Source of the DNA: Nannocystis bainbridge
GTDB lineage: Bacteria > Myxococcota_A > Polyangia > Nannocystales > Nannocystaceae
NCBI RefSeq assembly: GCF_028368995.1
Contig: NZ_JAQNDL010000001.1
Location: 384,001 to 448,000 of the forward strand
Direction of reading: 5' to 3'
Length of the DNA: 64,000 nt
Shown: positions 1 to 56,353 of the stretch, piece after piece
Layout: every line of letters begins with the position of its first letter
How positions within the stretch are numbered: the stretch's first letter is position 1
The notes under the pieces: generated by a model
The model's database searches: none
What the model was told of the DNA's origin: nothing
What the model saw: the letters and a program-made list of their open reading frames with translations, nothing else
Translations under genes and position numbers: made by a program

Positions 1-1050
1 CCTCTCGCTTCTGCCAGCGTTCTCGGCCTGTTCCTCGCCTGCGGCGACGCCACCCAGACCACCAGCGAGGCCGGCGATCCGAGCGGTCCGGCGAGCACCG
101 GCGGCATGACCACCGGCATCGTCATCCCGCCGACCAGCAGCACCACTGGCAGCACCAGCGCCGCCGTCACCAGCGAGGGCCCCGAGAAGTACGACCTCCC
201 GCCCAGCGACACCGAGGAAGATCCGGTCGGCTGCGGCGCCGTCGACGTCCTGTTCGTCGTCGACAACTCGAAGTCCATGGCGCAGTACCAGGCCGCCCTC
301 GCCGACGCCTTCCCGCAGTTCGTCGACGCCATGATCGACAACCTGCCGAAGGGCGTCGACCTCCACGTCGGCATCACCACCACCGACTTCTACTGCACCG
401 GCCCCGGCCAGGCCTGTTGCCCCGACAACTGCCCGGTCGGCAACACCCAGTGCCAGATCGGCACCACCCCCGAAGAGGTCGAGACCATCGACGAGTACTA
501 CGTCCCGCCGACCAGCGGGGACAACGGGGCCAACGGCGCGCAGGGCCGCCTGTTCGTCCACGACGGCATGGCCTACTTCGGCATCAACACCAACGCCGAC
601 CCGGCCCCGCTCAAGGCGTGGTTCACCGGCGCCGCCACGGCCGCCGGCGAGCAGGGCTCCTCGCTCGAGATGCCGGTCGCCGCCGCCGCCTACGCCACCA
701 GCACCACCAACGCCGGCGCCAACGAGGGCTTCTTGCGCGACAAGGACGCCGTCCTCCTGGTCTTCTTCCTCACCAATGATCCTGACGCCTCGGTCGAGGT
801 GCTCTCGACCTACACCGCCATGGTCCGCGAGGCCAAGGCCGACTGCGGCGGCGACGCCTGCATCCTCACCGCCGGCCTGCTCAAGAAATGCGTCCCGGCC
901 GAGAACCAGAAGCTGTGGCAGTTCATGAAGGCCTTCGGCGAGGAGCCGATCTGGGGCGACATCGAGGACAAGGCCGGCTACGTCGAGGTGGTCGGCGAGG
1001 CCCTCGCCGCCACCCTCGGCGACGCCTGCATCCACATCCCCATCGGCTGA
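1..1050 (+). CDS. Lipoprotein with Ser/Thr linker and vWA-like domain (5' end outside window)
   Basis: Frame is open from base 1 (PLASASVLGLFLAC, lipobox), then a T/S-rich linker and DVLFVVDNSKSM, a MIDAS-like DxSxS motif. Confidence 0.75.
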   Translation, partial: PLASASVLGLFLACGDATQTTSEAGDPSGPASTGGMTTGIVIPPTSSTTGSTSAAVTSEGPEKYDLPPSDTEEDPVGCGAVDVLFVVDNSKSMAQYQAALADAFPQFVDAMIDNLPKGVDLHVGITTTDFYCTGPGQACCPDNCPVGNTQCQIGTTPEEVETIDEYYVPPTSGDNGANGAQGRLFVHDGMAYFGINTNADPAPLKAWFTGAATAAGEQGSSLEMPVAAAAYATSTTNAGANEGFLRDKDAVLLVFFLTNDPDASVEVLSTYTAMVREAKADCGGDACILTAGLLKKCVPAENQKLWQFMKAFGEEPIWGDIEDKAGYVEVVGEALAATLGDACIHIPIG

Positions 1051-1122
1051 TGCCTGTCCGCGAGGACATGCTCCGGCAGACATGCCCCCGCGAGCATGTC
1101 CCTGAGAACATGTCCTCGAGGT
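1050..1122. repeat. 14-bp-period palindromic array, 5 units
   Basis: CCTG/CATG cores at 1053, 1067, 1081, 1095, 1109; lies between convergent genes. Confidence 0.9.
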
Positions 1123-1181
1123 CCTCCCGCTCCTCGACCTCGCCGCCGCCTTGACCCACAAAGGCCCGGGCGGCCGCCGCC

Positions 1182-2333
1182 TCAGCGGTACAGCTCGCCC
1201 TTGAGCGCGAACACCCCGGACACCGCCACCCGCTCGTCGAGCTGGAGCCCGGCCTTGACCTCGACGCGCTCGAAGTCGCCGACCCCGAGCGTCACCTTGC
1301 GCATCTCGAACGTGCGCTCGCCGCTCGCCACGAACACGATCGGCGCCCCCTCGATCTGGATCACCGCCTGCCGCGGCACCACCACCGCGCGGCGCTGGGC
1401 CGACGCCGGGCGGATGTTGGCGTGGACCGCCTGGCCCGCGCGCAGCATGCCCGACGAGTTGTCGACGACCACCCGGACCTCGGCGCTGCGCGTCATCGGG
1501 TCGAGCGCCACGGCCACGAACTCGACCACCCCGGCGAACGCCTGGTCGGGGCGGAGCGTCGGCGTCAGCTCGACCGGGTCGCCGGGCTGCACGTGCAGCA
1601 GCTCGCCCTCGAACACCGCCAGTCGGACCCACAGGCTGCTGCGGTCCGCGATCATGAAGGCCGTGTGGCTCGGCACCACCGCCTGCCCGCGCGACACCTG
1701 CACCTCGACCACGTCGCCCGCGATCGGGCTCGTCAGCGCATTGGTCCCGAGCTTGTGCTTGCCCGGCGCGCCCGCCAGGGCCGCGACCCGCTGCCTGGCC
1801 GCCCGCAGCTGCGCCTCGGCGATCGCGGCCGCCGAGACCGCCATGTCGAGCTCGCGCTGCGACGTGATGCCCTCGGCCAACAGGCTCTGCTTGCGCTCGA
1901 CGTCGCGTCTGGCCGCGATCAGCCGCGCCTCCATCGCCGCGATGTCCGCCTGGGCCGTGCCGAGCTCCGCGCTGACCAGCGTGCCCAGCACCTGCCCCAC
2001 CTCGACCTTGCTGCCCTCGATGACCGCGACGTCGGCCACCCGCCCGGCGATCCGCGAGCCCACCGCGGCCAGCCGCTGGGCGTCGAACTCGAGCACGCCC
2101 GTCACGTGGACCACGGGGGTTACGTCCTCGTAATGCGCCGACACCACCGAGATCCCCACCCGCTCCGCGTACCCGTCCGGCAGCTCCACCACGCCCTCGC
2201 GGATCAGCGGCAGCTCCGGCGGCGCCATCCGGACGCGCCCAGCGGCCTCGCCGCCGCCGCAGCCCATCACCGCCGACAGCCCGAGCAGCAAGCCGGCGGT
2301 CCATCGTGCAGTTCGGGCGCAGATCGCTGGCAT
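1182..2333 (-). CDS. RND efflux periplasmic adaptor subunit (CzcB/CusB-like)
   Basis: Lipoprotein-like N-terminus, lipoyl half-motifs (SRIAGRV..V.V.EG..V; LTSPIAGDV), coiled hairpin, C-terminal GL..DERVAVSGVFALK. Confidence 0.88.
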   Translation of the reverse strand: MPAICARTARWTAGLLLGLSAVMGCGGGEAAGRVRMAPPELPLIREGVVELPDGYAERVGISVVSAHYEDVTPVVHVTGVLEFDAQRLAAVGSRIAGRVADVAVIEGSKVEVGQVLGTLVSAELGTAQADIAAMEARLIAARRDVERKQSLLAEGITSQRELDMAVSAAAIAEAQLRAARQRVAALAGAPGKHKLGTNALTSPIAGDVVEVQVSRGQAVVPSHTAFMIADRSSLWVRLAVFEGELLHVQPGDPVELTPTLRPDQAFAGVVEFVAVALDPMTRSAEVRVVVDNSSGMLRAGQAVHANIRPASAQRRAVVVPRQAVIQIEGAPIVFVASGERTFEMRKVTLGVGDFERVEVKAGLQLDERVAVSGVFALKGELYR

Positions 2334-2379
2334 ACGGTGCTCGCAGCTACTGTGGATCGCCGGCCGCCTGTTCCGCCGT

Positions 2380-2395
2380 TTAAGAAACGGTAAAG
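2380..2395 (-). promoter_or_regulatory. Candidate PmrA/QseB-type response-regulator box upstream of the adaptor gene
   Basis: TTAAG-N6-TAAAG (11-bp period), 47 bp upstream of the ATG at 2333; a similar site sits at 4249. Confidence 0.5.
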
Positions 2396-4199: not shown

Positions 4200-4248
4200 G
4201 TGCTCCCGCAGTGTACCGCCGGATCTGGCGCGGGCTGCGACCACCCGA

Positions 4249-4264
4249 TTAAGACCCCGTTAAT
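4249..4264 (-). promoter_or_regulatory. Candidate autoregulatory PmrA/QseB-type box
   Basis: Minus strand ATTAAC-N5-CTTAAT, 50 bp upstream of the regulator ATG; TACACT -10-like hexamer at 4215-4210. Confidence 0.55.
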
Positions 4265-4522
4265 CCGCCCGTACGCACGCATCGCGGACCTTCGTGCTGT
4301 CCCGATCAGGTCAGCTCGCGCAGGCCGTCCTCGCCGTCAAAATAAACTGTCCCAAAGGACATCTCCGTCCTGCCGCGGCCGGAGCCCGCGCATGAGCTCG
4401 TCCAGGGTTCGAGCAGCGCTGTTTCCAGAAAGTTTCCAGAAACTGCGGCCATGCGAGCTCGTGCGACCCCTGCCGCCCGGCCCTCGACCTGTCCTCGAGG
4501 ACATCTCAAGCATCGCGCCGGC

Positions 4523-6586
4523 TCACCCCCCGCAGCCGATCGGATAGCCCCCGCGCGGCCCCGCTGCGACCTCCGTCGCCGTGAACCCCGAGGTCCCGTC
4601 GCAGCGCGCCCGCCACAGCTGCGGCCTCGTCGCGGGCGCGTGCCACAGCACATCGTCGCAGCCGTCGCCGTCGAAGTCGCCCACGCACGTCGTCGCCTCG
4701 CCCGGCGGCGTCGGCACCGGCACGCGCTCGATCGCTGGCCCTCGCATCCGCCACAGCCATGCGCGCTCCGGCTCTGCCGACCACCACAGCGCCTCGTCTG
4801 CCCCGTCGCCGTCGAAATCGCCGACCTCCATCCGCGCCAGCAGGTCGCCCGCGCCCTCGCTGCGCGACCACCCGGACGCCACGCAATTGCCGTCCTCGCC
4901 CCACAGCCGGTCCGGATGCCAGCGCACCGTCGCCTGCGCCCGCGGGTCCCACCACAGCGCCTCGTCCACCCCGTCGCCGTCGAAATCGCCGACGCGACCG
5001 ACCTGCTCTTCGCCCGGGCGCAGCCCGCACGCCGGCAGACCTGACCGTTGCAACATGTCCCTCGAGTCATCTCCGAACGCCCACAGATCGACCGCGAACC
5101 GCTGCGCGTCGAGCCACAGCACCTGGCTGCGGCGCGCCCCCGATCCGCGACCCGGCGTCCACAGCCCCACCAGCGGCCAGCCGTAGCCGGCCGCGAAGCG
5201 GTCGTCGAGCGGCTCGTCCTCCACCCCGCCCGCGCGCCAGACCCACCGCGCGTCGACCTCCGCGCCTGGCCGCCACCACCACACCGCGTCGCCGCCGTCG
5301 CCCGCGAACGCCCCCACGATCGGCGCCGCGCTGCCCGGCGCCGCCACCCGCGTGCGCACGAAGCCCCCGCGACCCTGCGCCGGCGGCTGCCACAGCTCGT
5401 CCGTGATCTCCTCCGGCCCGAACATCAGCACCTCGGTCCGCCCGTCCGCGCCTGCCAGCGCCACCGGCCGCCACGAGCGCGGCGCCCGGCTCGGGCACGG
5501 CCCGTCGCGCATGCAAAGGCTGAACGTGCGCCGCGCGAACCGCCCCGCCGGCCCGCCGTACCACACCTCGTACGTCTCGCCCCCCGGCTGAAACCACACC
5601 ACGTCCTCGCGCCCGTCGCCGTCGACATCCACGCGCGAGCGCGGCAGCGCGTAGAGGATCGCCGCGCCCAGGCGATCGCCGCGCGACAGCCGGCCCTGCT
5701 TGCTGGCCGCCGAGATGCCCGGGCAGCGCGCGTCGCCCATCACCGACGCCGGATCGGGGTACGTCAGCCCGCGGAACTCGGTCGAGGCCGCGTCGACGCA
5801 GATCTCCCGCGACTGCTCGAACCGCGAGTGCTCGTGCACGAACCCCAGCAGGTGCCCGAGCTCGTGCAGCACCACCATCTCGGGCGAGTACATCTCGCTC
5901 ACCAGCGCCTCCGGCCACACCAGCAGCCGCGCCCCCTCGTCCTCCGGCGCCGTCGCCGGGAACGACGCCGACGCCAGCGGGCACCCGCTCGCCCCGCACT
6001 CCGCCGCCGCCCCCTGGCGCACCGTGAACGCCACCTGCTCCGGCGCTGCGCAGGCCGGAGTCCCGTCGAGCTCGGCGCGGTGGATGAAGTTCACCCCTGA
6101 CGCCCGCTCCCACTGCGCCGTCGCCAGCGTCAGCGCCGCGCGCGTGCGGGCCAGCAGCGCCCGGTCGGCGAACTCGCCCAGGCAGTACGCCAGGTCGAGC
6201 TTGCGCCCCACGTCCCACGCGCGGTCGAGCGTCCCGCGGCACTTGACCGCGCTGCGGTACGCTGTCTCTTCCGACATGTCCGAAAAACCATGTCCCGACG
6301 GCAGCAGGATGTCGCCCTCGATCCGCAGCCCGCCGCCGACCAGCACCTCGGGCGCCTCGCCGCCGCAGACCCCGTCGTCGGCCACCAGCGCCGCGCCCTC
6401 GCAGCCGCCGGCGAGCGCCCCCAGAGCCAGCGCCAGGGCCCGCCCCGCGCGCCAGCGGCCGCGCGCCAGCGCCAGCGCGGCGACCTCTGCCAGCAGCGCG
6501 CCCCGGTCCGACCGCTCCACTCGCCTTGCGATGCCCGACCCGGGGCACCCGTGCAACCCGTCGCCGTCACGCTCCCCGCGGCCCAC
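4523..6586 (-). CDS. Zinc metalloprotease (metzincin/M57-like) lipoprotein with FG-GAP repeats; start uncertain
   Basis: HELGHLLGFVH zinc motif, SVM Met-turn, IEGDI propeptide, several GDFDGDGxD repeats. Confidence 0.82.
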   Translation of the reverse strand: MGRGERDGDGLHGCPGSGIARRVERSDRGALLAEVAALALARGRWRAGRALALALGALAGGCEGAALVADDGVCGGEAPEVLVGGGLRIEGDILLPSGHGFSDMSEETAYRSAVKCRGTLDRAWDVGRKLDLAYCLGEFADRALLARTRAALTLATAQWERASGVNFIHRAELDGTPACAAPEQVAFTVRQGAAAECGASGCPLASASFPATAPEDEGARLLVWPEALVSEMYSPEMVVLHELGHLLGFVHEHSRFEQSREICVDAASTEFRGLTYPDPASVMGDARCPGISAASKQGRLSRGDRLGAAILYALPRSRVDVDGDGREDVVWFQPGGETYEVWYGGPAGRFARRTFSLCMRDGPCPSRAPRSWRPVALAGADGRTEVLMFGPEEITDELWQPPAQGRGGFVRTRVAAPGSAAPIVGAFAGDGGDAVWWWRPGAEVDARWVWRAGGVEDEPLDDRFAAGYGWPLVGLWTPGRGSGARRSQVLWLDAQRFAVDLWAFGDDSRDMLQRSGLPACGLRPGEEQVGRVGDFDGDGVDEALWWDPRAQATVRWHPDRLWGEDGNCVASGWSRSEGAGDLLARMEVGDFDGDGADEALWWSAEPERAWLWRMRGPAIERVPVPTPPGEATTCVGDFDGDGCDDVLWHAPATRPQLWRARCDGTSGFTATEVAAGPRGGYPIGCGG

Positions 6587-6784: not shown

Positions 6785-6868
6785 GGACCTGCCCCTTCGG
6801 GCCTGTCCCTTCAGACCTGCCCCCGGAGACCTGCCCTTTCGGACCTGTCCCCTGGGACCTGCCCGAAC
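6785..6868. repeat. 14-bp-period array, 6 units (RGACCTGYCC-N4)
   Basis: CCTG cores at 6788, 6802, 6816, 6830, 6844, 6858; an extra pair at 6648/6662. Confidence 0.92.
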
Positions 6869-13094: not shown

Positions 13095-13132
13095 AAGCCT
13101 GTCCTATCGGACATGTACTCAAGAACATTCGC
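13095..13132. repeat. 14-bp-period array, 3 units
   Basis: Cores at 13098, 13112, 13126 between convergent genes. Confidence 0.75.
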
Positions 13133-16842: not shown

Positions 16843-16905
16843 GGACATGCCCCCGGGGACATGCCCCCGGGGACATGCCCGCCGGGGCATGTCCTCCGGG
16901 ACACC
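16843..16905. repeat. 14-bp-period array, 5 units (GGACATGCCCCCGG)
   Basis: Cores at 16846, 16860, 16874, 16888, 16902; fills the gap between convergent stops. Confidence 0.93.
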
Positions 16906-19836: not shown

Positions 19837-20043
19837 GGCACGGCTGCCGCCGTGAGAGGCCGACCCGCCGCCCGGGCTTCGCTGCAGGCTGTCCCTCGGG
19901 GCAGATCGTCGGGCGCCCGTTCGACGGCCAGGTCTGGCCGCCGAACGGACGCCTCTTCACGTCCTCGAGCGGCGTGCCCGCTCCCGCGGCGAGCCTCCCG
20001 GCGGCTCCGACGAGCACGTCCAAGCAGGCGAATCGCTTAGCGG

Positions 20044-20093
20044 TCAGCTGTCCTTACGGACAGACTCATTGCTCAGCTGTCCTTCCGGACAGC
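20044..20093. repeat. Two copies of TCAGCTGTCCTT(A/C)CGGACAG (14-bp motif family)
   Basis: Direct repeat of a CTGTCC-N4-GGACAG palindrome at the 3' end of the 20073 gene. Confidence 0.8.
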
Positions 20094-20675
20094 CGCAGTA
20101 GTCAAACCCGTTCGACCCGATCCTCGTCCGACCCGCAGTCCGATCGCCAGCAGCAGCGCGTAGAGCAGCAGCTCGAGCAGCTCCTGCGCCGCGCGCTCCC
20201 ACGCCGCTGACATGTTGCCGGCCACGAACAGCCCCGCGATCGCCACGAACGCCCACCGCTCGTCGCGGCTCGGTGCGAGTCCGCCGAGCCACCGCCGCGG
20301 GGCCGCGAAGTAGCCGATCAGCGGCAGCGCGAACAGCAGGTACGACGACCCGCGGGCGGCGTTGTGCATGTTGCGGTGGCCGAACGCCCCGGCCATGCGC
20401 TCGCCGATGGTCGTCCAGCCGTACACGCTGCCCCAGTCGACCTCCTCGACCAGCACCAGCGCCAGGAACCCCGCCATCGCCAGCGCCACCGCTCGCCTGT
20501 CCGCCCGCCGGCCCGCCAGCGCCCACGCCACCACCGCCGCCGCCAGTACCGCGTGCGACGCGTGCTCCGCCGGGCCCTCCTTCGCCAGCAGCGCGGCGGT
20601 CCACGCCGGGCTCGTCAGGGCCGCCGTCACGGCCACGGCCGCGATCGTCAGCGCCGTGATCGTCCGCGGGAGCAC
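20073..20675 (-). CDS. Integral membrane protein; start uncertain
   Basis: Several TM helices, KEGPAE and EEVDWG motifs. Confidence 0.7.
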   Translation of the reverse strand: MLPRTITALTIAAVAVTAALTSPAWTAALLAKEGPAEHASHAVLAAAVVAWALAGRRADRRAVALAMAGFLALVLVEEVDWGSVYGWTTIGERMAGAFGHRNMHNAARGSSYLLFALPLIGYFAAPRRWLGGLAPSRDERWAFVAIAGLFVAGNMSAAWERAAQELLELLLYALLLAIGLRVGRGSGRTGLTTAAVRKDS

Positions 20676-23050: not shown

Positions 23051-23171
23051 ACCGCTTACCCGCGAGGGTTTCGGCGATAGGCCGGGCCCTCGCCGGACAT
23101 GCCCGTAAGAACATGTCCGCTCCCGCCGCGTCCCGCCAGGGACGCGGATTTTTTCGCTATCCTCGCGCGCG

Positions 23172-26100
23172 GTGCCGCCCGTGATCGCCTTCGCCGCCGT
23201 GCTCGTCGCGTTCGCGCGGCGCTGGCACGTGCGCTGCGGCCCGCTCGCCTGCGCCGAGTCGCTCGCCCTCGTCGCCGCCGTCGCGCTCGGCGGGCTCGGC
23301 CTGCTCGCCGCGCTGCTGGCCGTCGCCGGCATCTTCTCGGCCCCGTCGTTCTCGTTCACCGCGTTCGCCCTGGCGGTCCTCGCCTGGCCTTGGGGACAGC
23401 GAGCGCCCGCGCGCCGCACCGCCCGCGACCTGCCGCGCGCCGCCGGCCTGCTCGCGCTGCTGCTCGTCGCCGCCGCCCTGCGCTGGCCGCCGATCCCCGC
23501 CGACCTCGGCGGCCGCGATCAGGGCACCTACGTGCTCCGCGCCCGCCACACCCTGCGCACCGGCCGGACCGGCCACACCGACCCGGTCCTCGCCCGCGCC
23601 GGCGCCGAGGCCGAGCTGCGACCTGGCCCCGGGGACATCCTCGGCCTCTACCACGCCGATCGCAGCCCCGCCCGCGTCGGCCGCTACGAGGGCGCCTATC
23701 GCCCCGGCTTTTACCTCACCCGCCGCGACGACGGCGAGGTCGTGCCGCAGTTCCTGCACCTCCACCCGTCGCTGCTGGCGCTGTTCGGCCTGGTCTTTGG
23801 GCCATGGTCGATGGGACTGGTCGCACCGCTCGCCGGCGTGCTCTCGGCGCTCGCGCTGTGGGCCCTCGGCGAGCGCCTGTGGCCGCGCGCCGGCGCCTCG
23901 TGGCTGGCCGCCGGCCTGTTCACGCTGTCGCCGATCGCCGTGTGGACCGCCCGCACCCCGCTCACCGAGTCACTCACCGGCCTGCTGCTGCTCGCCGCCG
24001 CCCTCGCGGTCGCCCGCGGCCTCGCATCACGCGACCCCCCCCGCGAAGCTGCCGACGCCAGCAGCGGCTCACGCACCTCCCTCCCCACGTCGGCCGCCCG
24101 CAGCTCCGATCCCGCCGCCAGCTCCGTCCCCGACGCCGCACCGCGCTCCGACCCCGCGCACGGCCTCGAGCTCACCGCCGCCCTGCTGCTCGGCCTCGCC
24201 GGCTTCGTGCGCGGCAACCTGTGGCTGTCCGCCCCGGCCCTGCTCGCCGTCCTGTGGCTGCGCCCCGGACCTGGCCCTCGCCGCATGTCCGCGCCGACCT
24301 TGCTGCTCGGTCTGCTGCTCGCCAGCCTCGCGCTCCACCTCGCCACCGGGTACCCGTACCTTCACGACGAGTTCAAGCGCCAGCTCGGCCCCGTCGCCGC
24401 GCTCTCGGCCGGCGGCGCCCTCGTCCTCGGCGCCGTGGCGATCGCCATCTACCTCGCCCTCGACGCCGCCCTCGATCGCCTCCGCGGCCGCGTGCGCCGG
24501 CTCCCGCTCGTGCTCGCCGTGCTCGCCGCCCTCGGCGCTCTCGCCTGGCTGCTCCTGCGCGCCCCCGGCCCGCCGTGGAGCCGCCTCGACCCGGCGCTGC
24601 CGCTGCTCGGTGTCCCGCTCCTGCTCGCCGCCGGCCTCGGCCTGGTCGTGTTCGCCCGCCTGCGCCCCGTCGCCACCACGCCGATCGTCTGGCTGCTCGC
24701 GCTCGCCACCCTCCCCGTCACCGCCCTCGCCCTCTACGCCCAGCGCAACCTGCCCCAGGTCGGCCTCTACTACTACGGCCGCTACCTCGTGCCCGAGCTG
24801 CTGCCGGCCGCCTGCCTGCTGGCCGCACTCGCGCTCATGCATGTCCATCGGGCCATGTCCCGAAGGACCGGTCTCTCGCGACATGCGCGAAAGGTCAGCC
24901 TCGTCCTCGGCCTCGGCCTGCTGGTCGCCCAGGCCCTGCCTTACCTGCGCCACCCGGCCACCCGCCTGCAGGAGTTCGCCGGCGCCGAGCGGCTGATCGA
25001 CGACCTCGCCGCCGAGCTGCCCGAGCGCGCCGTCGTGCTCGCCGGCGGCGAGGGCTGGCACCACGTCCACGTGTTCAGCCAGCTGGGCGGCGCGCTCGCC
25101 TTCGGCCACGGCCGCACCGTCCTGCCCTACCGCAGCCGCGAGGCCGCCTACGCCGCGCTTCACGAGCTCCTCGTCGCCGGGCCCGCCGCCAGCGGCGACG
25201 ATCCGCCGCCCGTCTACCTCCTGCTGGGCGAGGCCACCCACCCGCTGCGCCTGCCCGGCCAGGCCGCCCCGCTCGCGCTCGTCGACGACCTCCTGCCGCC
25301 GCCGTTCGTCGCCCGTCCTGTCGCCTTCGCCGAGCTCTACCTCGACCGCCTCACCCCCGTCGATGACCGGCTCCCCGACCGCGTCACCCGCACCGACCTG
25401 CGCGTCGGCCTGCTCGAGGTCCGCGTCGACCCGGCCCGGCGCGCCGCCGTCCGCAGCTGGCGGATCGACGCCGGCCGCGCCGTCGGACCTGGCCCTTTGA
25501 ACCTGTCCTCTTATTACTTGCCCGACGGACAGACCTGCCTCGACCTCGAGCACCCGCTGGTCCTCGACCTCCCGCCCGGCGACGGCCCCGGCTCGCTCGT
25601 GCTCGTCGCCCAGCCCGGCGGCGACACCCCCGCCTGGCGGATCGTCGTCGACGGTCAGCCCGTCGCCCTCGATCCGCCTGGCCCCGGCCCCGCGCGCGCC
25701 CGCGACACTCTCGGCCCGATCGCCTTCGCTGCGCCCCCGCGCCGCGTCGAGCTGTGGGGCAGCCCCCGCCCGCGCGACGACCTCGCCTGCCCTCACGGCG
25801 GTCTCGCCGAGGTCCGCCTGCTCGGCCCCGATCGCGGCCCCGACGAACCCACCCCGGCCTGGGCCCGCACCTACAGCCCGCCGCACGACCTCGGCCACCG
25901 CGTCACCCCGGCCCGCTTCGCCCCCGGCCGGGCCCTCACGCGCCTGCGCTCCGGCCTGGACCGCGCCCGCGAGCTCGACGGCCCCTCGCTGGTGGTCCGC
26001 GCCGGCGACCCGCTGACCTTCCCCATCGAACATGTCCCGAGCGCCAGCTCGATCAGCCTCGCCGTGACCCTCCGCGGCACTCGCCTGAGCCCGTCCGGCC

Positions 26101-26300: not shown

Positions 26301-26374
26301 ACATCGTTACCTGTCGTCAGGGACATCCGCCCTGCGCTTGACCCGCCGCCGACCGCCGCGGTACCCCGGGTGCG

Positions 26375-26677
26375 ATGTTCCGCCCGACCCCCCTCAAGCT
26401 GATCCTCGGCCTCGTGCTGGTCGGCGCCACCTACTTCGTGGCCGCCAACTCGCACATGGACATCTTCCCCTGCAAGAAGACCCGCGAGGACCTGGTAACC
26501 CGTCGCCTCGTGACCGACGAGTCCACCTGCAGCATCCTGCAGACCCACGGCGACTACTACCAGCCGCCGGAGAGCGCCAAGCTCACCGAGGCCGGCTGGG
26601 CCACCGCCGTGGTCGTGATCGGCCTGGTCCCCCTGCTGCTCGGCTTCGCCATCGGCTCCCGCTTCTCGAAGAAGTGA
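26375..26677 (+). CDS. Small two-TM membrane protein
   Basis: Two hydrophobic helices flanking a Cys-pair loop; strong GC3. Confidence 0.75.
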   Translation: MFRPTPLKLILGLVLVGATYFVAANSHMDIFPCKKTREDLVTRRLVTDESTCSILQTHGDYYQPPESAKLTEAGWATAVVVIGLVPLLLGFAIGSRFSKK

Positions 26678-26752
26678 GCCTGCCCTCGAGGACATGCCTG
26701 AACGGACATGTCCCCTTCGCCATGCCCGATCGGGCATGTCCCTTCAGACATC
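26676..26752. repeat. 14-bp-period array, 6 units
   Basis: Cores at 26679, 26693, 26707, 26721, 26735, 26749 between convergent genes. Confidence 0.92.
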
Positions 26753-26784
26753 GGTGGCGAGCGCTGCCCCGCCGCGCTCGCCGC

Positions 26785-29132: not shown

Positions 29133-30821
<1,689 letters not shown>

Positions 30822-31725: not shown

Positions 31726-31818
31726 GCGCCTGTACGATCGCACATGCACGAAGGGGCAGGTCCCGAAGTACCTGCCCCTTTCGCCATGGCCCGAGGGACA
31801 TGCCCTCGCGGACAGCCG
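31726..31818. repeat. 14-bp-period array, 7 units
   Basis: Cores at 31729, 31743, 31757, 31771, 31785, 31799, 31813; an extra pair at 31641/31655. Confidence 0.9.
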
Positions 31819-31831
31819 CGATCAGCCGCGA

Positions 31832-33295: not shown

Positions 33296-33320
33296 GAAAA
33301 TCTCCGGTCTGTCCGAAAGG

Positions 33321-34025
33321 TCAGGTGGCCGGCGCGCCCGGGGCGCGCAGCTCGAGGTTCGAGAGGTGGAGCAGCAGCTTGTACTTCTGGCCGTCGACGC
33401 GGCCCTCGAGGAAGCCGCGGTACGGCGTGCCGTTCTCCTGGAAGATCAGCGGATCGCGGCCCTTGCCGCCGGCGCCGAGCAGCGCCATCTCGCCCTTGTC
33501 GTGCAGCTCCTTCGCCATCTTGAACAGGAAGTCGAACGACAGGCCGTCGACGTGCTTGATCTGGATGGTGCGGCGGAACGCGAACTTGGTGACCACCTCG
33601 GCCTTGGGCAGCCGCCGCGGGGTGAACCGCACCGGCGACTCCTTCTCGTTGGTGTTGGCCGGGATGTCGGCCGCCGGCTTGCGCTCGCGCTCGGCCCCGT
33701 CGGGCCCGAACAGCACGTCGACCAGCCTCGGCGAGGCGTGCAGCACCTCGCCCTTGCTCGACAGGAACACGGTCTGCGTGTCGCCGACGACCTTGCCGAC
33801 CTGCTCGATGTCGATCTCGGGGTCGCCGTCGATGAGCGCCTGCGCCAGGTCGCCCGGCAGCGCGCTGAGCTTGCCGAAAGTGCCGGCCTCGGTGGTCGCC
33901 AGGTAGCGGCGGAACTCGAGCTTCTTGCCGGGCACGCCGGACACCGGCCCGACCTTCTCCTTGACCGACTCGAGCGCGAGCGTGGCGTCGCGCTTCTCCT
34001 CGTTCATCAGCTGGATCTTGCGCAT
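33321..34025 (-). CDS. Uncharacterised protein, possible divergent Ku-like protein B
   Basis: GGAG RBS, strong GC3; C-terminal half (F..L...AKEL.DKG.MAL...RGFLE.R.DG...LLLHL) resembles the Ku core by eye. Confidence 0.6.
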   Translation of the reverse strand: MRKIQLMNEEKRDATLALESVKEKVGPVSGVPGKKLEFRRYLATTEAGTFGKLSALPGDLAQALIDGDPEIDIEQVGKVVGDTQTVFLSSKGEVLHASPRLVDVLFGPDGAERERKPAADIPANTNEKESPVRFTPRRLPKAEVVTKFAFRRTIQIKHVDGLSFDFLFKMAKELHDKGEMALLGAGGKGRDPLIFQENGTPYRGFLEGRVDGQKYKLLLHLSNLELRAPGAPAT

Positions 34026-34047
34026 GGCTGTCTCCCTGACCTGTCCC

Positions 34048-34650
34048 TCAGAACATCTCGAAGTCGAGCTCGTCACCGTCGTCGTCGCCGCCCGGATCGT
34101 CGGCCACGGTGGTCTGCAGCTCGCACCACTCGCTCACCGCCGGCGAGCCCACCAGCGCGAAGTAGGCCCCGCCGTTGCACACGAGGTAGGCCAGCTCGGT
34201 GTCGTAGCCGCCGCGGTAGCTGAACACGAAGCGGAACACCTTGCCGCCGCGCAGCTCACCCTCGAGCTTGGGGTCGAGCCCGTTCGGGTCGAGCGTGTAG
34301 ACCGAGCGCACCGCGAGGTCGAGCAGCTCGCCCGGATCGATCGGGCCCTCGAGCTTCTGCGCCTCGCCGAGCGTGCTCGGGATGTGCGGCAGCGGCTTGC
34401 CGTCGCCGTCGAGGCCGACCAGCTTGCCGTTCGGGATCCACGCGTTGCCCTCGTCGAAGTAGCCCTGCGCGGTCATGCCCGAGCGGATCAGCAGCGTGCC
34501 GTCGCGCGACAGCTCGGCCCGCTCGCAGCGCTGCTCGTGAGGGTCGAGGATCTGGCGCTGACGCTTGCCGTACAGCTTGGCGCGGTCGAGCTTCTCGTGA
34601 TCGAAGGTCGACTGCACGCCGCCCCAGTTGACGATGATCGGTTTCGCCAT
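34048..34650 (-). CDS. Uncharacterised protein, possible divergent Ku-like protein A with acidic tail
   Basis: KLYG.R.R, QGY, IDP...Y.L.P, L..GKV..F..R...A.L pattern like the Ku beta-barrel; ends DDDGDELDFEMF. Confidence 0.62.
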   Translation of the reverse strand: MAKPIIVNWGGVQSTFDHEKLDRAKLYGKRQRQILDPHEQRCERAELSRDGTLLIRSGMTAQGYFDEGNAWIPNGKLVGLDGDGKPLPHIPSTLGEAQKLEGPIDPGELLDLAVRSVYTLDPNGLDPKLEGELRGGKVFRFVFSYRGGYDTELAYLVCNGGAYFALVGSPAVSEWCELQTTVADDPGGDDDGDELDFEMF

Positions 34651-35074
34651 AAGTGCGAGGGCCCAAGCGGCCGCCAAGCCTTATCCGACCGGCCGCGCAG
34701 CCCTGTCAAGCCGAGCGTTCTGCCAGCGCGAACTCGCGCTGCGCACTACTGCCCATCGACATCGCGACAGCGGCCCGCTGCACCGCGGATCCGCATCCTT
34801 GTACGCGCAATCGAGCGAGACCCTGCCAGCGCCGTCACGTTCTGATCTCGAGCAGATCATGAACCGGCCGCGCCGATCTCCTTCGAGCCCCCGGTCGGTC
34901 GACCGCGAAGGCTCCACGGACTCGTCAGCTCGAGCGTGCAATCACCTGTCCCGAGGGACAGCACGACCCTCGGCTCGGATGCCGTCGAAGCCTCGCGAAC
35001 CTTCGACCGTGAGCAGAGCGACCGCGCCCTGGTCGGGGCCCGCGATCGCGCGTAGGGTCGCCGGCAAGAACCTT

Positions 35075-41888: not shown

Positions 41889-42063
41889 CGGCCTGGCCAA
41901 TCGGACATGTTCTATCGAGCATGTCGTCAAAGACATTCGCGCGCCGGACCGTGAAGTCACATGCTCCACGGGACATGCCCTTCCGAACATGTCCCACCGA
42001 GCACTCCGCCGCCGCTCGCCTCCGCGCTCACCCTGCCCCATCGAGCATGTCCTCACGGACAGC
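41889..42063. repeat. Three blocks of 14-bp-period units (about 11 units)
   Basis: Cores at 41892-41934, 41960-42002 and 42032-42060. Confidence 0.88.
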
Positions 42064-42765
42064 TCACGCCTCGGCCGCCGCGAGCGCCGCCGCGAACAGC
42101 TCGGCCAGCGCGGGCTCGTCGGGCAGCTGCTGGGCCAGCGCGGTGCGGATGGCTTCCACGCGCCGGACCAGATGTGCGCGCGGGATGCCGCGGCGGCCCA
42201 GGAACCCCGCCAACCACCGGACATGGTCGGCCAGCACCGCCGGCGAGCCCAGGGCCAGCGCGTCGGCGCAGTACGACACCAGCGTGCCGAGCTCCACCAC
42301 CTGCAGCGGCTCGTCGTCGCCGGCGGCCGCCAGGGCCACCGCGGCGGCCAGGACCAAAGTATCGGCGCGGCGCTGGACCTCGCGCGCGAGCCCGTCCGGG
42401 TACGCCAGCGCGGCCGCCGCGGCGCTCAGCAGGTCGACCGCGGCCTGGCGGTCGGGCCACGGCTCGTCGGCGATCGCGGCCGCCAGACGCTCGAAGTTCT
42501 CGGCCAGGTGCAGCGTGCACATGCCGCGCGCGGTCAGCACTTGCTGCAACCAGCGGGCGTAGTTCTCGAGCACCGCCGGGTCGTCGCCGGCCAGCGCCTG
42601 CTGCAGGTACTGCACGTGGAAGCGACCGTCCTGGCGGCCGTGCCGGTCGGCCCGCTCGCCGAAGCGCTCGCGCCAGAACGGGTCGACGTACATCTCGCCG
42701 AGCACGCGCTCGGTCAGGCGGTCGCTCGCCTCCGCGAGCTGCGCGATCAGGGCCTCGTGGCTCAC
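42064..42765 (-). CDS. Tandem globin-like (phycobiliprotein-like) helical protein
   Basis: GTGA overlap; two repeats D..FHVQYLQQAL..DDP.VL.NY.RWL..L..RG and L.SY.ADAL..GSP.VL..H.RWL..L.RRG. Confidence 0.7.
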   Translation of the reverse strand: MSHEALIAQLAEASDRLTERVLGEMYVDPFWRERFGERADRHGRQDGRFHVQYLQQALAGDDPAVLENYARWLQQVLTARGMCTLHLAENFERLAAAIADEPWPDRQAAVDLLSAAAAALAYPDGLAREVQRRADTLVLAAAVALAAAGDDEPLQVVELGTLVSYCADALALGSPAVLADHVRWLAGFLGRRGIPRAHLVRRVEAIRTALAQQLPDEPALAELFAAALAAAEA

Positions 42766-47689: not shown

Positions 47690-47770
47690 CCGCCTGGCCT
47701 CGGGGGCATGTCCCGATGGACATGCCCATGCAGACATGCCCCGGAGAGCATGTCCCGAGGGACCTGTCGT

Positions 47771-47772: not shown

Positions 47773-48976
<1,204 letters not shown>

Positions 48977-50601: not shown

Positions 50602-50659
50602 CCGGGCGCCGCGAGCCGTCGCGCGCGGTCGCCATCCCCTCGCTCAGGGCGTACGCGCG

Positions 50660-50697
50660 ACGGATGTCTCGGAGGACATGTCTTCCAGGACATGCGC
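50660..50697. repeat. 14-bp-period array, 3 units
   Basis: Cores at 50663, 50677, 50691 between convergent genes. Confidence 0.8.
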
Positions 50698-51561: not shown

Positions 51562-51910
51562 AGGCGATCGATGTAGCACGGCGATCGCAGCATCACCATG
51601 GGACCCGGCTGTCCTGCGAATGCAGCCGCGCACGACATCGGCGTCGCACCCCGTGTCGGAAGAGCGGCCACCCGCGCGCACCGGACCCGGGCCCTACGAT
51701 CGACGAAAGAAAAAGCATACCGATCGCGCATTGGTGAAACATTCGCCATTCGCATGATCGATGGCGCATGGTTCGTCGACAATCCGGGTGCTGGTGCCCT
51801 CACGACGCCAGGCGCGGCAGGAGCCGGAGATTCTGCAGGCATGCGGCAGGCGGGCGGCACGGGGATATGGCGGACCCGAACCGTTCGGCGTGTTACTTTG
51901 GCCTCGATCT

Positions 51911-52528
51911 ATGACCCGTTTTTTGCTCTGCCACGCCCTGTTCGTCCTGCCCGTGATCGCAGCCTGTGAGAACCAGGACCCGCTCGATTCCCTGTCGCAG
52001 GGCTCGGCCGTCAGCAACGGCCCCGGCGGCGGCCCCAGCGGCGGCCCCAGCGGCGGCCCCGGCAGCGACACGATGCCGGCGACGGACACGGACCCCACTG
52101 GCACGAGCACCGACGCGCCCACGACCACCGACGCGACCACGGGCGACCTCCCGACGGGTGGCGAGACCGGGCCGACCGAACCCGGGACCACCGGCGAAGG
52201 GCTGAGCCACGCTGCCGACATTCAGCCGATCTGGGACGCCAATTGCGTCACGGACTGTCACACGCCGGGTGGCGCCGCGTCGGGGTGGTTCGTCCTCTCC
52301 GGAGATCCCTACGACACGCTCATCAGCCAGGCCTCGTTCGAGATCAACGACATGCAGCTCATCGTCCCCGGCGTCCCGGAGCAGAGCTATCTATGGCACA
52401 AGATCAACGGCACCCACCTCGCAATCGGCGGCAACGGCAACATGATGCCGCCGCCGCCCGCGCCCGCGCTGTCGCAGGCGGCGATCGACACCATCGGTCA
52501 GTGGATCCTCGAGGGCTGCTCGCTGTGA
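51911..52528 (+). CDS. Lipoprotein with c-type cytochrome-like domain (CxxxCH)
   Basis: IAAC lipobox; DIQPIW..NCVTDCH, VPG.PEQSYLW.K, MMP, I..WI.EG. Confidence 0.75.
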   Translation: MTRFLLCHALFVLPVIAACENQDPLDSLSQGSAVSNGPGGGPSGGPSGGPGSDTMPATDTDPTGTSTDAPTTTDATTGDLPTGGETGPTEPGTTGEGLSHAADIQPIWDANCVTDCHTPGGAASGWFVLSGDPYDTLISQASFEINDMQLIVPGVPEQSYLWHKINGTHLAIGGNGNMMPPPPAPALSQAAIDTIGQWILEGCSL

Positions 52529-52646
52529 AGCGACGCCCGACAGCGCGCGCTGTCCTCGAACCATGAGAGCCCGGGCGGTCGGACGCGGCGATCCCGCTGC
52601 ACGGGCACCTTTACGTGCCCCGGGCGGCGCGCGAAGCTCGGGCCGC

Positions 52647-53417
52647 ATGCGCGTCTCCACCGTCGACCTCGAAACCGCCGCGGGCACTGACCACACCCAA
52701 CTCGTCACACCCGACGGCGCCGGGCCCTGGCCCGCGATCATCCTCTGCACGGACGCCGGCGGCCAGCGCCCGGCCATGCTCGAGATCGCCGGGCGGCTCG
52801 CCGACCTCGGCTACCTGGTCGCCATCCCCGACCTCTATTTCCGCGTGGGCCAGCTTCAGGACCTGCTGCCCGAGGGCGAGAAAGATCGGCCGATCATCAC
52901 GGCGATCTTCGGCGACGCGGCTGTGCGCCAGCGGTGGTTTCAGCGCTTCTACCTGTCCGCCACCGCCGACGAGACCGTGCGCATCGGCGTCGGCGCGGTG
53001 CTCGACCACCTCGCCGCCCGGCCCGACGTGACCGGCAAGGTCGGCACCACCGGCTATTGCATGGGCGGCAACATCTCCCTGCGGATCGCCACGATCTTCG
53101 GCGACCGGATCGCCGCGACGGCCTCGTTCCACGGCGGCGGCCTCGCCACCGCGGCGCCCGACAGCCCGCACCTGCGCGCCGCGGCCGTGCGCTCGCGCGT
53201 CTACGTCGCGGGCGCGATCGAGGACGCAACCTTCACCGACGAGGCCCGGAGCACCCTCGAGGCCGCCCTCACCGAGGCCGGCGTCGAGCACACGATCGAG
53301 GTCTACCCGGGCCGGCACGGCTTCGCCGTGACCGACAACCCGACGTACGACGCGGCCTGCGAGGCGCGGCATTTCGCCGCCCTCGAGGCCCTCTTCGCCG
53401 CGACCCTGCGCGCGTAG
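52647..53417 (+). CDS. Dienelactone hydrolase family protein
   Basis: PDLY, GYCMGG nucleophile, SFHGG, YPG.HGF. Confidence 0.92.
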   Translation: MRVSTVDLETAAGTDHTQLVTPDGAGPWPAIILCTDAGGQRPAMLEIAGRLADLGYLVAIPDLYFRVGQLQDLLPEGEKDRPIITAIFGDAAVRQRWFQRFYLSATADETVRIGVGAVLDHLAARPDVTGKVGTTGYCMGGNISLRIATIFGDRIAATASFHGGGLATAAPDSPHLRAAAVRSRVYVAGAIEDATFTDEARSTLEAALTEAGVEHTIEVYPGRHGFAVTDNPTYDAACEARHFAALEALFAATLRA

Positions 53418-53665
53418 ACAGCGGTGCAGCGACCCGCGTCTCGCAGCATTGCGAGGCGCGGCGCCGTTCGATGCACCGCGATGCACTCCACCGATTCTCG
53501 GCTCGCGCGAAAATCGACTGCGGCTTCACGACCTCGGCGTCCGCACACGCGCTGAGGGATTCGCCGACACACGCTCTCCGGCCCACCGACGCGCGCGGAG
53601 CGACGAATGGCGCCGCCGGACGTCCACGGGCGACAGCGCCGGCGTTTTGTGGTCCATTCATGTCC

Positions 53666-55315
53666 ATGCGACGTACAGCATGGCTTTGGGGCGCACCGGT
53701 ATTCTGCATGCTCGCCTGCACCGGCGGCGGCGGCGACACCGACACCACCGGTGGCACTGGTTCCCCCGGGACGATGCCCGGCGCGACCGAGGGCGGCACC
53801 CCGGGCACCACCACCGACGACCCGCCGACCACGGGCGGCCCGACCGCGCCGACCGGCACCGACGGCACCACCGCCGCGAGCGACACCACGCCCCCGGCCA
53901 CCACCACCGACGGCACCACCGGCGATCCGCCCGACCCGAACGAGCTCGGCGGCTTCTTCCGCCGCGGCATCAACATCGGCGTGCGCAACCCCAACTTCCC
54001 CGATCCGGACGGCGCCTGGCTCGCGGGACAGGTCGGCTGCAACAGCATCCGCGTCTCGCTGCCCGAGCGGCACCTCGTCACCTGGGGTTACGACATCGAG
54101 GTCTCCGACGTCGACGCCTACGCCGGCATGGGCCTCGATCGTCACATCGCCTTCTTGACCTCGCCGATCGCCGAGCACTCCTCGGCGCCGGACGGCACCC
54201 CGGAGTGGGAGCTCGCGCATTACATCCCGGCCAACCTCTACGAGCCGGCGATCGTCGATGGCGCCATCAACCCGGACAACTACTGGGCCGAATACGTGTA
54301 CAAGACCGTCAGCACGTACAAGGACCACGTCGATATGTGGGAGATCTGGAACGAGCCCGACTGGGTCGCCGACTGGAATTATACCGAGACGTGGGACACC
54401 GATCCGCCGACCAAGGAGCAATTGGTGCGCTTCGGCGGCTCGATCTTCGACTACGTGCGCATGCTACGGGTCAGCAAAGAGGCCGCCCTGCTCGCCGATC
54501 CCGACGCCAAGATCGCCCTCGGCGGCATCGGCTACCCCAACTTCCTCGACGCCCTGCTGCGCTACACCGACAACCCCGACGGCGGCGCCGTCACGGGCGA
54601 GTTCCCCGAGACCGGCGCGGCCTACTTCGACGTCCTCAACTACCATTATTACCCGCTGTGGACCCCCGGCAATTCCGACGCCGGCGCCGACGGTTTCTTC
54701 GCCACGCGCGACGCCTTCGCCGCCAAGATGGCGGCCGCCGGCGTGCCCGAGCGGCCCTACAACGTCACCGAGGTCGGCGCGCCCAAGACCGCCCTGAACG
54801 GCCAGCCCGGCGGCCTCGAGTACGCGCGCAACTTCTACGTCAAGGTGTTCGCGCGCGCCCAGGCCGAGAAGTTCGTCGGCGCCGACTGGTTCATCCTCAG
54901 CGACGGCGACCCGGGCGAGTCGTTCGGCGAGATGGGCCTCTATCAGGACATCAAGGATCTCGGCAAAAAGGAAGACGCGACGCCCTCGGTCACCGGCGTC
55001 GCCGCGAAGACGCTCAACACCCTGCTCGCCGACTCGCGCGCCGACCCGGTCGCCGCCGCCGCCCTGGCCGCGCCCGCCGACGTGCGCGCCTACGCGTTCC
55101 GCCTGCCCGACGACCGCCAGGCGATCGTCGCCTGGGCCTACGCGCCCGGCACCGACGAATCGGCGCAGGCCCAATTCGACCTGCCGACCGACAAGAGCTT
55201 CGACGTGCACGCCTGGGACTTCAGCCAGACCGGCACCGCCACCCCGGTGAGCCCGGAAGGCGGCCTCCTCGGCCTCGACCTCACCGCCTCGCCGATCATC
55301 CTCGTCGAGCAGTGA
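53666..55315 (+). CDS. Lipoprotein glycoside hydrolase (clan GH-A-like)
   Basis: MLAC lipobox, T/P linker, WEIWNEPD acid/base, [14 protein letters not shown] nucleophile. Confidence 0.8.
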
Positions 55316-55327
55316 GCCTCGGCCGCG

Positions 55328-55394
55328 CGGCATGGCCTTCAAGACATGTACTTTTGTACATTTTCTGAAGGACATGCCTCGACGGCCATGTCGT
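55328..55394. repeat. 14-bp-period array, 5 units
   Basis: Cores at 55331, 55345, 55359, 55373, 55387; AT-rich spacers. Confidence 0.88.
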
Positions 55395-55531
55395 CGCTGA
55401 AGCTCACCGGCCTCGCCCACCTCTCACAGCCCATCCCCCGCGGTTCCGATATCCTTGCGCGAGCGGGCTCGGCCGCGCGGCTTTGCCTCGTTTGATAATC
55501 GTGGTAGTGGGCCGATGAAGCCCCCTTCCCC

Positions 55532-56191
55532 ATGCCCGACCTGACGCTGCACGCCCATCCTTTGTCTTCCTATTGCTGGAAGGTCCTGATCGCCCTCTAC
55601 GAGGCCGGGACCGCGTTCACCTTCCAGCACCTCGATCTCGCCGACCCGTCCGCGCGGGCCGAGTTTTACGCCCTGTGGCCGATCGGCAAGATGCCTGTGC
55701 TCGTCGACGCCACGGCGGGGCGGACCGTCGCCGAGACCAGCGTCATCATCGAGTACCTCGAGCGCTACGCCCCGGCCGCGCGCCGCATGCTGCCCACCGA
55801 GCCCGAGGAGGCGCTCACGGCTCGCTTCTGGGACCGCTTCTGCGACCTCTACCTCTCGACGCCGATGCAGAAGGTCGTCGGCGACCGCATCCGCCCGGAG
55901 GGCAGCCGCGATCCGTTCGGCGTCGACGAGGCGCGGCGCACTCTGGACGCCGCGTTCGGCGTGCTCGAGGCCCACATGCAGGGGCGCGAGTGGGCGGCCG
56001 GTTCGTCGTTCGGCCTGGCCGACTGCGCCGCCTCGCCGGCCCTCTTCTACGCCGACCAGATCGCATCGCTGCGCGAGCGCCCGGTCCTCGCCGCCTACCT
56101 CGCGCGGCTCGCAGCGCGCCCGTCGTTCGCGCGCGTGCTCGACGAGGCCGGGCCGTGGATGCACAACTTCCCGCGCGAGAACCGGCCCTGA
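55532..56191 (+). CDS. Glutathione S-transferase family protein
   Basis: HPLSSYC, WPIGKMPVL, ETSVIIEYL, FGLADC, RPSF. Confidence 0.93.
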   Translation: MPDLTLHAHPLSSYCWKVLIALYEAGTAFTFQHLDLADPSARAEFYALWPIGKMPVLVDATAGRTVAETSVIIEYLERYAPAARRMLPTEPEEALTARFWDRFCDLYLSTPMQKVVGDRIRPEGSRDPFGVDEARRTLDAAFGVLEAHMQGREWAAGSSFGLADCAASPALFYADQIASLRERPVLAAYLARLAARPSFARVLDEAGPWMHNFPRENRP

Positions 56192-56288
56192 GCCTCGGGC
56201 CGGCCGCGACGCGAGGCCGACGCGGATGGCGCCGGAAGTGAAGCCGCGCCAATCCATGGGCGCGCCGGCTCGAGGCGTGCGCGCGGAA

Positions 56289-56335
56289 TGTCCGAAGGGA
56301 CATGTCCGAAAGTTTCGGACATGTCCCCTCGGACA
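56289..56335. repeat. 47-bp near-perfect palindrome built from the 14-bp motif
   Basis: 23-bp arms with 1 mismatch around a single central G at 56312. Confidence 0.9.
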
Positions 56336-56353
56336 CACGCCGGCGCGGCCCGG

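Follow-up and report, generated by a model that had tools for sequence, protein, structure and literature searches.

Tiled arrays of an interrupted palindrome behind protein-coding genes of Nannocystis bainbridge: a possible protein lattice at the ends of transcription units

Myxobacteria with genomes of 11-13 Mb and 72% G+C have few classical terminators, and the ends of their transcription units are poorly understood. The 64,000-nucleotide stretch of Nannocystis bainbridge DNA analyzed here (G000:C1:384001-448000; hereafter, the window) raises this question in a concrete form: a short palindromic motif recurs in it as arrays with a 14-bp phase just behind stop codons, and we asked what reads these arrays, and whether as DNA or as RNA. 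The genome (G000) comprises 11.05 Mb in 5 contigs with 71.5% G+C, and its assembly is 90.5% complete. Arrays were called by chaining matches to a position weight matrix (PWM), an array being at least 3 units in 14-bp register, and genes were called with a crude caller based on G+C at the third codon position, which gave 7335 genes covering 77-81% of each contig. A preliminary description, made from the letters of the window, had listed 21 places, and the motif was present at every one of them. The PWM chain found 16 arrays in the window, among them all 11 that had been named as arrays, and Tandem Repeats Finder reported period-14 arrays at 1080, 6782, 16843, and 50664. The places that had been called pairs carry the motif as well, but they are really single or double units of the form TGYCC-N4-GGRCA or one-mismatch variants of it, that at 6648 being weak.

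The unit is an interrupted palindrome, TGTCC-N4-GGACA (the strict unit below), whose fuller form, CMTGTCC-N4-GGACAKG, spans 18 bp with two-fold symmetry. The spacer length is strict, with genome-wide counts of TGTCC-Nk-GGACA of 8, 16, 1987, 5, 3, and 2 for k = 2 to 7, respectively. A 10-bp core, GGACATGTCC, occurs 956 times in the genome, while eight palindromes of similar composition occur 0-86 times. The autonomous unit is the interrupted palindrome and not this core: 493 of the 1987 strict units have no neighboring half-site, compared with 33 of the 956 cores. The first half-site of an array is TGTCC and the last is GGACA. The arms reach seven bases, C-M-T-G-T-C-C, and their second base is A within arrays, where CATG is common to two units; lone units and the edges of arrays often have C there (the bases upstream of strict units are CA in 779 cases and CC in 516). 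The G of the TG step is essential, because variants with TCTCC number 1-4.

The 14-bp phase extends over the whole genome, as does the enrichment over background, and both agree with what the preliminary description had expected. Same-strand copies of GACATG are spaced by 14 bp 808 times, by 28 bp 422 times, by 42 bp 338 times, by 56 bp 164 times, and by 70 bp 64 times, with only 2 cases at 13 bp and 8 at 15 bp. In-phase double units, for which one mismatch was allowed, number 584/627 in G000, while the pattern one base out of phase (N10) numbers 32/31. Genome-wide, the PWM chain called 2026 arrays with 3-13 units (867 arrays of 3 units, 420 of 4, 312 of 5, 264 of 6, 119 of 7, 32 of 8, 7 of 9, 1 of 10, 3 of 12, and 1 of 13). 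On contigs C5 and C4, which served as the null test, the chain called 99 and 171 arrays, while order-3 Markov copies gave 1 and 0. A palindrome that contains CATG and is over-abundant could also be a by-product of methylation, restriction, or short-patch repair, a kind of drive that has been proposed for HIP1 of cyanobacteria; it leaves unexplained why the spacing is exactly N4, why units tile at 14 bp, and why they lie behind stops, and we regard it as very improbable. Array density is uneven, at 0-41 per 100 kb, and correlates with G+C (r 0.57, with fewer arrays in lower-G+C bins). Array-poor stretches (0-1 per 100 kb, against a mean of 13-24), such as G000:C1:1100001-1300000, have a lower G+C of 0.686-0.697, and they may be recently acquired DNA in which arrays have not yet been gained.

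The arrays lie behind protein-coding genes, above all between convergent ones. They occur in 572 of 1331 convergent intergenic regions (43%), 582 of 4669 tandem regions (12.5%), and 112 of 1330 divergent regions (8.4%), at a median distance of 13 bp from the nearest stop codon. A flank test that is independent of the gene caller found convergent coding flanks at 492 of the 2026 arrays (24.3%) and at 173 of 5000 random places (3.5%). In tandem regions of at least 200 bp, 250 of 496 arrays fall in the fifth next to the upstream stop, compared with 34 in the fifth next to the following start. The first strict unit mostly begins +2 to +8 after the stop codon, which may itself fall in the free spacer (offsets -8 and -9) but never in an arm. 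A strict unit is present within 120 nt behind 1254 of the 7335 protein genes (17.1%), against 2.2% of random 123-mers. This share is 29% at convergent gene ends, 17.7% at tandem gaps of at least 150 bp, and 3.6% at gaps below 40 bp, and operon interiors have units at background level. Of the 11 named arrays in the window, 8 are flanked by convergent genes and the other 3 follow a gene in tandem. The placement given in the preliminary description, after stops and often between convergent genes, holds. Convergent regions also have a preferred array size, with 91 arrays of 3 units, 101 of 4, 102 of 5, 129 of 6, 55 of 7, and 10 of 8 (mode 6, with a steep drop past 7), whereas in one-sided contexts the frequency declines steadily from 3 units.

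The genes of tRNAs behave differently. Only 2 of 102 tRNA genes have a unit behind them, which is the random level, and a T-run follows 22.5% of them compared with 5% of protein genes. Because a textbook hairpin with a T-run stands behind the tRNA-Met gene at G000:C1:20972-21050, the genome does use classical terminators at tRNA genes, and rarely behind protein genes; in 40001-60000, 8 sites resemble classical terminators, and shuffles give 4.2 +/- 2.0. The arrays have the hairpin potential of an intrinsic terminator (a G+C-rich hairpin followed directly by a U-tract) but not the U-tract: no T enrichment was found behind them, the T fraction being 0.19 both before and after, and any T-run is present at only 95 of the 1254 unit-bearing gene ends. 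These T-runs mostly lie in phase within degenerate units and the T fraction is flat, so we rejected the idea that they are hidden classical terminators.

This placement is what an RNA element would be expected to show, and we regard such an element as the main rival of the protein lattice proposed below, possible though not probable. Stacked hairpins at the 3' end would stop 3'-to-5' exonucleases or aid termination without a U-tract, in either direction. The positions at +2 to +8, the crowding next to the upstream stop, the low share at gaps below 40 bp, and the scarcity behind tRNA genes, which carry T-runs instead, all speak for it, as does the fact that arrays beginning with TGTCC and ending with GGACA consist of whole hairpin units. 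The predicted folds are also strong: eight tested stretches reached -40 to -55 kcal/mol as RNA (z -3.3 to -7.7), and folding is possible on both strands. A look for matching transcripts yielded none for window positions 44000-52000, the five RNA runs compared sharing 0.07-0.08 of its sequence words. The REP/BIME elements of enterobacteria and pseudomonads, for which protein binding and protection of mRNA ends have been proposed, share several traits with the arrays, being short extragenic palindromes in hundreds to thousands of copies that are lineage-restricted, clustered, and enriched behind genes and between convergent genes. They differ in having a GTAG head, units of 20-40 bp rather than 14-18 bp, and alternating inverted copies with variable linkers rather than head-to-tail 14-bp tiling with a shared CATG. 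They also differ in their usual RAYT transposase, for which G000, at its completeness of 90.5%, gave 0 matches (Y1 transposase, PF01797), while a control search matched 6 of 14 known genomes. A RAYT transposase as dispersal engine was rejected on this ground, and this search yielded no transposase candidate in G000. Identical arm sequence at about 2800 sites needs either a sequence reader or a dispersal engine, which weighs against an RNA element.

Among known systems, the nearest concept is TRIT of Mycobacterium, a palindrome found in that genus only, conserved in both sequence and structure, bidirectional, and located tightly at stop codons (PMC3152330). TRIT follows no classical U-tract logic, and its authors also suspected a binding factor. 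TRIT thus offers a precedent for an RNA element, namely a genus-restricted, sequence-conserved palindrome placed tightly at stop codons, without a U-tract and acting in both directions. TRIT has 147 copies (PMC3152330) of one longer hairpin of different sequence that is centered at -8, inside the gene, whereas here about 2800 units are tiled and begin at +2 to +8.

As for how the arms are read, it is by sequence and not by pairing. Variants changed in one arm are common (178 for TGTCC..GGTCA and 230 for TGACC..GGACA), and the compensated double TGACC..GGTCA occurs 25 times where independent arms predict about 21, so that the covariation expected of hairpins did not appear. Likewise, TGTCG..CGACA occurs 49 times, against 50 and 64 at off-spacings, and within arrays paired positions carry C with G 274 times, against 255 expected. 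Transition doubles are modestly raised (146 for TGCCC..GGGCA against about 60 expected plus about 30 background; 127 for TGTCT..AGACA against 94), overall 1.35 to about 2 times expectation. The outer bases T (87%), G (96%), C (98%), and A (92%) are kept best, and conservation falls to 60-76% at the three G+C-rich positions beside the spacer; this pattern is the reverse of what hairpin stability would predict. The spacers, A+T-enriched and weakly symmetric, are nearly free, with 166 distinct sequences among 778 and 6.66 of 8 bits. GNRA loops number 45 and TTCG loops 16 of the 778, and tetraloop selection was rejected accordingly. The preliminary description had offered tetraloop hairpins of REP type as one of two readings; the strong folds and the placement at mRNA ends rather than tRNA ends fit it, but the loop preference and the RAYT match do not appear.

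The element is also without polarity, because mirror positions oriented by the upstream gene differ 1.0- to 1.24-fold, no more than spacer positions do. An apparent sense-strand wobble (G-U) advantage, 480 against 341 at first, was discarded since the spacers are equally skewed and a G+T-rich sense strand predicts the same. The missing compensatory changes, the conservation of the outer bases, the lack of preferred loops, of T enrichment behind arrays, and of a wobble advantage beyond background skew all count against an RNA element. The score threshold for array calling was set on the 10-bp core, which biases the anticorrelation within cores and the correlations between half-sites, and both were dropped as evidence for this reason. 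The correlation of unit strength at lag 3 (42 bp, four helical turns) is r -0.001, against -0.221 +/- 0.054 in the null.

These observations suggest, at roughly even chances in our estimate, that a lattice of symmetric DNA-bound dimers marks where protein-coding transcription units end. A putative DNA-binding protein would, as a symmetric dimer, read the 18-bp two-fold site on duplex DNA, and the right half of one site would double as the left half of the next. Such sharing is possible because the outer CATG is its own complement, and sites that share CATG halves tile at a 14-bp step. The dimers would then wind around the helix, three steps making four turns. Lattices of this kind would be kept directly behind the last stop of protein-coding transcription units, above all between convergent genes, where they might act in both directions as a boundary, either as a roadblock to read-through RNA polymerase or as an insulator. 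The strict N4 geometry (1987 units, against 16 with N3 and 5 with N5) and the 14-bp phase support a dimer lattice, as do the outer T-G/C-A bases being kept best, the absence of polarity, the stand-alone palindrome, the preferred convergent array size, and the lag-3 correlation. The strongest point in its favor is the combination of C-N-T-G sequence read-out, free spacer, and no compensation.

The elements in the window are as follows, none with an assigned strand.
1050..1115: 5-unit array, beginning 2 nt past the TGA of a plus-strand gene that ends at 1050; convergent intergenic region; 2-3 units in relatives
4343..4366: single unit CTGTCC-CAAA-GGACAT
4485..4508: single unit CCTGTCC-TCGA-GGACAT, directly behind the stop (4523) of a minus-strand gene
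6785..6864: 6-unit array with a CCTG center variant (GGACCTGYCC), behind a minus-strand gene ending at 6872; variant kept in 3 of the 3 relatives recovered
13095..13132: 3-unit array, convergent intergenic region
16843..16903: array of 4-5 units filling a 70-bp gap between convergent stops (16836/16906); two adjacent units agree in every base, spacer included
19888..19905: one unit of variant form, TGTCC-CTCG-GGGCA
20045..20095: 2 units of the form GCTGTCC-N4-GGACAG, apart from each other, directly behind the stop (20073) of a minus-strand gene
23095..23118: 2 units, behind a plus-strand gene ending at 23050
24837..24888: intragenic array of 4-5 units, in frame in a plus-strand gene (23172-26300) for a 1042-aa membrane protein
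26310..26327: single variant unit TGTCG-TCAG-GGACA, 10 nt past the stop at 26300
26676..26755: 6-unit array, beginning at the TGA (26677) of a plus-strand gene; convergent intergenic region
30314..30351: 3-4 units, intragenic, within a plus-strand gene (29133-30821)
31726..31819: 7-unit array, convergent intergenic region; 0-5 units in relatives
33308..33325: one unit of variant form, TGTCC-GAAA-GGTCA, behind the stop (33321) of a minus-strand gene
34037..34060: unit overlapping the stop codon of a minus-strand gene (34048-34677)
34945..34962: single unit CCTGTCC-CGAG-GGACAG
41889..42066: three arrays of 4, 3, and 3 units (at 41889, 41957, and 42029), behind a minus-strand gene ending at 42064
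47690..47769: array of 5-6 units (5 from 47704) filling the gap between convergent stops (47688/47771)
50660..50697: 3-unit array, convergent intergenic region, adjoined by a hairpin with T-run at 50726-50706 (minus strand)
55328..55393: 5-unit array, behind a plus-strand gene ending at 55315
56284..56340: two unit pairs (at 56284 and 56317, 2 units each), convergent intergenic region

Two further repeats were seen in the window. At 21125-21317, Tandem Repeats Finder reported 2.2 copies of a 27-bp repeat and 2.5 copies of a 42-bp repeat whose consensus contains CACCTGTCCCCGAGGACAGCC; this is a higher-order repeat that contains the unit and lies upstream of a plus-strand gene starting at 21446, not behind a stop. 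The other is a perfect direct repeat of 11 bp, GTTTCCAGAAA, present twice at 4421-4442 between two palindrome units of the intergenic region 4244-4523.

We compared the arrays with those of relatives. Of 10 other genomes of the genus, 8 contain a strict double-core pattern, and the 2 without it are 88% and 64% complete; it occurs in 0 of 30 genomes of other genera. Single units number 333-2090 per genome in the genus itself (g1; 7 of 7 genomes), 87-169 in genus g2 (5 of 5), and 67-696 in genus g4 (7 of 7). In g32 they number 5-20, against 2-7 for controls, and in the other 12 genera of the family at most 11. No genome among 200 others of the phylum has more than 14 units, with controls of up to 28. 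Tiling is not confined to the genus, because G071 of g4 has in-phase double units (195/163); G060 has 16/15, and G013, G052, and G059 have 1-7. In G071, a stop codon is near at least one side of 16 of 28 arrays and near both sides of 7. In G052 of g2 (L170-L184), the unit is about 80-fold over control (169 against 2), and only 2 of 15 sampled copies stand directly behind a stop; since most of the sampled copies there seem to lie within coding sequence, the unit may have another or an older role in that genome.

Five relatives within the genus show synteny with the window, their identity to it being 86-89%. For 12 of the 16 window arrays, one relative or more yielded the orthologous stretch, and 4 of these 12 are intragenic. 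All five relatives have the arrays at 16843 and 47704, with 4-6 units, and phase and cores are kept there while the spacers differ. Identity to the window is 0.55-0.81 for the core positions (205 comparisons each), 0.36-0.40 for the spacer positions (158 each), and 0.62 for the 20-nt flanks (1880).

Unit number, on the other hand, varies at orthologous loci (5 against 2-3 at 1050; 7 against 0-5 at 31726), and adjacent units that are identical including the spacer occur both at 16843 in the window and in the relatives, so duplication by 14 bp is ongoing. The preliminary description had held that the arrays are not recent slippage, which is right only in part, given these identical neighbors. 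The same features could point to a selfish or neutral element, a self-expanding minisatellite or mobile palindrome that grows by slippage and survives where it is harmless, behind genes and in protein linkers; the scarcity of arrays in lower-G+C 100-kb bins and the in-frame arrays described below would also suit it. It does not account for arms that are kept while spacers randomize, for the array in carA (described below), whose cores stay although the peptide changes, for arrays that are co-located in 5 species at 85-90% flank identity, or for the preferred convergent array size, and no transposase candidate was found. Overall, we consider it unlikely.

Some arrays lie inside genes. No stop in the flanking frame was found for 295 of the 2026 arrays, and 43 of these have at least 5 units and lie in long open reading frames (ORFs) with normal codon-position G+C on both sides. 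Their peptides are of the type GHVxEDMSxxTGPEGHV, in which the three phases of the core are read in turn. The array at 24837 in the window lies in a loop of a membrane protein between hydrophobic stretches, and its frame is unbroken and its length equal in five relatives. Outside the window, carA (carbamoyl-phosphate synthase small chain; G000:C4:601063-602286) contains a 6-unit array in its inter-domain linker, which constitutes an in-frame insertion of 15-19 residues relative to 13 orthologues of other genera, including the closest one (68% identity, g4). This array contains a 42-bp, that is, 3-unit and in-frame, duplication, and it is also present in G005, where the peptide has changed and the cores stay. 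The in-frame arrays would thus be a nucleic-acid signal that shapes protein linkers, whether it is read by a protein or as RNA. Rickettsia palindromic elements, single elements of about 100-150 bp whose in-frame insertion in protein genes adds a peptide segment, are likewise in-frame palindromic inserts, but the inserts here are 14-bp tilings that grow in 42-bp steps.

If a protein reads the lattice, known dimers on DNA offer some guidance. Abutting palindromes in exact register are known from the metboxes of MetJ, 8-bp boxes present in 2-5 copies per promoter of a few-operon regulon, with one dimer per box and contacts between neighbors; here the palindromes are located at gene ends, not promoters. 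The best mechanistic match is the operator of PadR. The Bacillus subtilis PadR dimer reads an 18-bp site, C6-N-T8-G9-N-A11-N6-T18-N-C20-A21-N-G23, in which C, T, and G are specific, and its crystal contained four dimers on two 28-bp duplexes placed end to end, since the junction of the duplexes formed a second operator, the 'bridge' (PMC5728393). From the numbering printed there, with CATG at 6-9 and 20-23, we infer one dimer per 14 bp with each CATG shared. The padC operator (PMC5728393) resembles the unit as an 18-bp, 6-N6-6 two-fold site with C-N-T-G bases and a CATG-to-CATG distance of 14 bp. Its consensus CNTGNA-N6-TNCANG fits the unit written as CMTGTC-N6-GACAKG, with the C present in 67% of strict units and 79-89% within arrays, the T in 87%, and the G in 96%. 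This geometry, together with the 14-bp tiling in the crystal, lends support to a dimer lattice. The PadR operator differs in having A11 where the unit has C, in its inner bases (TAA, against TCC here), and in being a single repressor site at a promoter rather than one of thousands of gene-end arrays.

Searches for the protein itself did not point to PadR. No PF03551 (PadR) match above cut-off was found in G000 or G001, both of which are unit-rich, and matches do not track the element (0 in G001 and in the non-carrier G024; 2, 3, and 2 in G010, G071, and G052, respectively). PadR was therefore rejected as the reader despite its fitting operator geometry, and the reader, if a protein, is not a recognizable PadR. 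The sole weak PF03551 match in G000 (21.5 bits, below the 27-bit cut-off) is a 129-residue winged-helix protein (G000:C3:82585-82689; L215:1399-1788, minus strand) with an array directly behind it, as many genes have, whose ORF we take to be HxlR-like from its motif. Nothing in the neighborhood of the longest arrays (9-13 units) suggested a reader. The p53 half-site RRRCATGYYY is matched letter for letter by the 10-bp core and its common variants, and among the matches listed in a literature search with the literal core string all were non-bacterial, p53 papers ranked highest, and the core itself turned up in p53 papers only; a search for the p53 domain (PF00870) gave no match, although its control also matched nowhere, and we take the fit as a coincidence. 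The preliminary description had not recognized the motif as a described family, which held up: Rfam at gathering threshold gave 0 matches in the window, and no description of the element was found in the literature on Sorangium or Nannocystis repeats and palindromes or on the literal motifs. Its other suggestion, a lattice for a dimeric protein, agrees with the sequence-read arms, the N4 restriction, the free spacer, and, by analogy, the PadR geometry, while these searches found no binding protein.

Several points weigh against a protein lattice. The strongest is the absence of units behind tRNA genes together with the strong RNA folds, which are very stable on both strands; because units are absent behind tRNA genes and present at 17% of protein-gene ends, a role at the mRNA level would be more direct than one at the DNA level. 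Within one genus, a hairpin under stabilizing selection would likewise keep its arms and leave its loops free, and the 42-bp duplications could cause the lag-3 signal. Finally, because no PF03551 match was found, the geometric agreement with PadR may be a coincidence or involve another fold.

About 2000 arrays, present in 43% of convergent gene pairs, point to one lineage-specific way of ending transcription units. If an RNA element is responsible, the arrays would make up a large family that is new, resembles REP and TRIT, and lacks the usual transposase. If the dimer lattice is real, bacteria would have a gene-end signal of a new kind, and the engineering of high-G+C producers of natural products would gain an insulator part that is compact, bidirectional, and tunable by unit number. 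A bolder proposal, which we put forward tentatively and with some doubt, is that this lineage ends most of its protein-coding transcription units by a protein lattice and not by RNA hairpin terminators, with symmetric dimers of a lineage-specific factor other than PadR, one per 14 bp on overlapping operators, blocking polymerases from both sides and with the sites being a signal strong enough to be kept even within genes. Protein-dependent terminators are known from mitochondria and RNA polymerase I, and the lattice, if this is true, would be their equivalent in bacteria.

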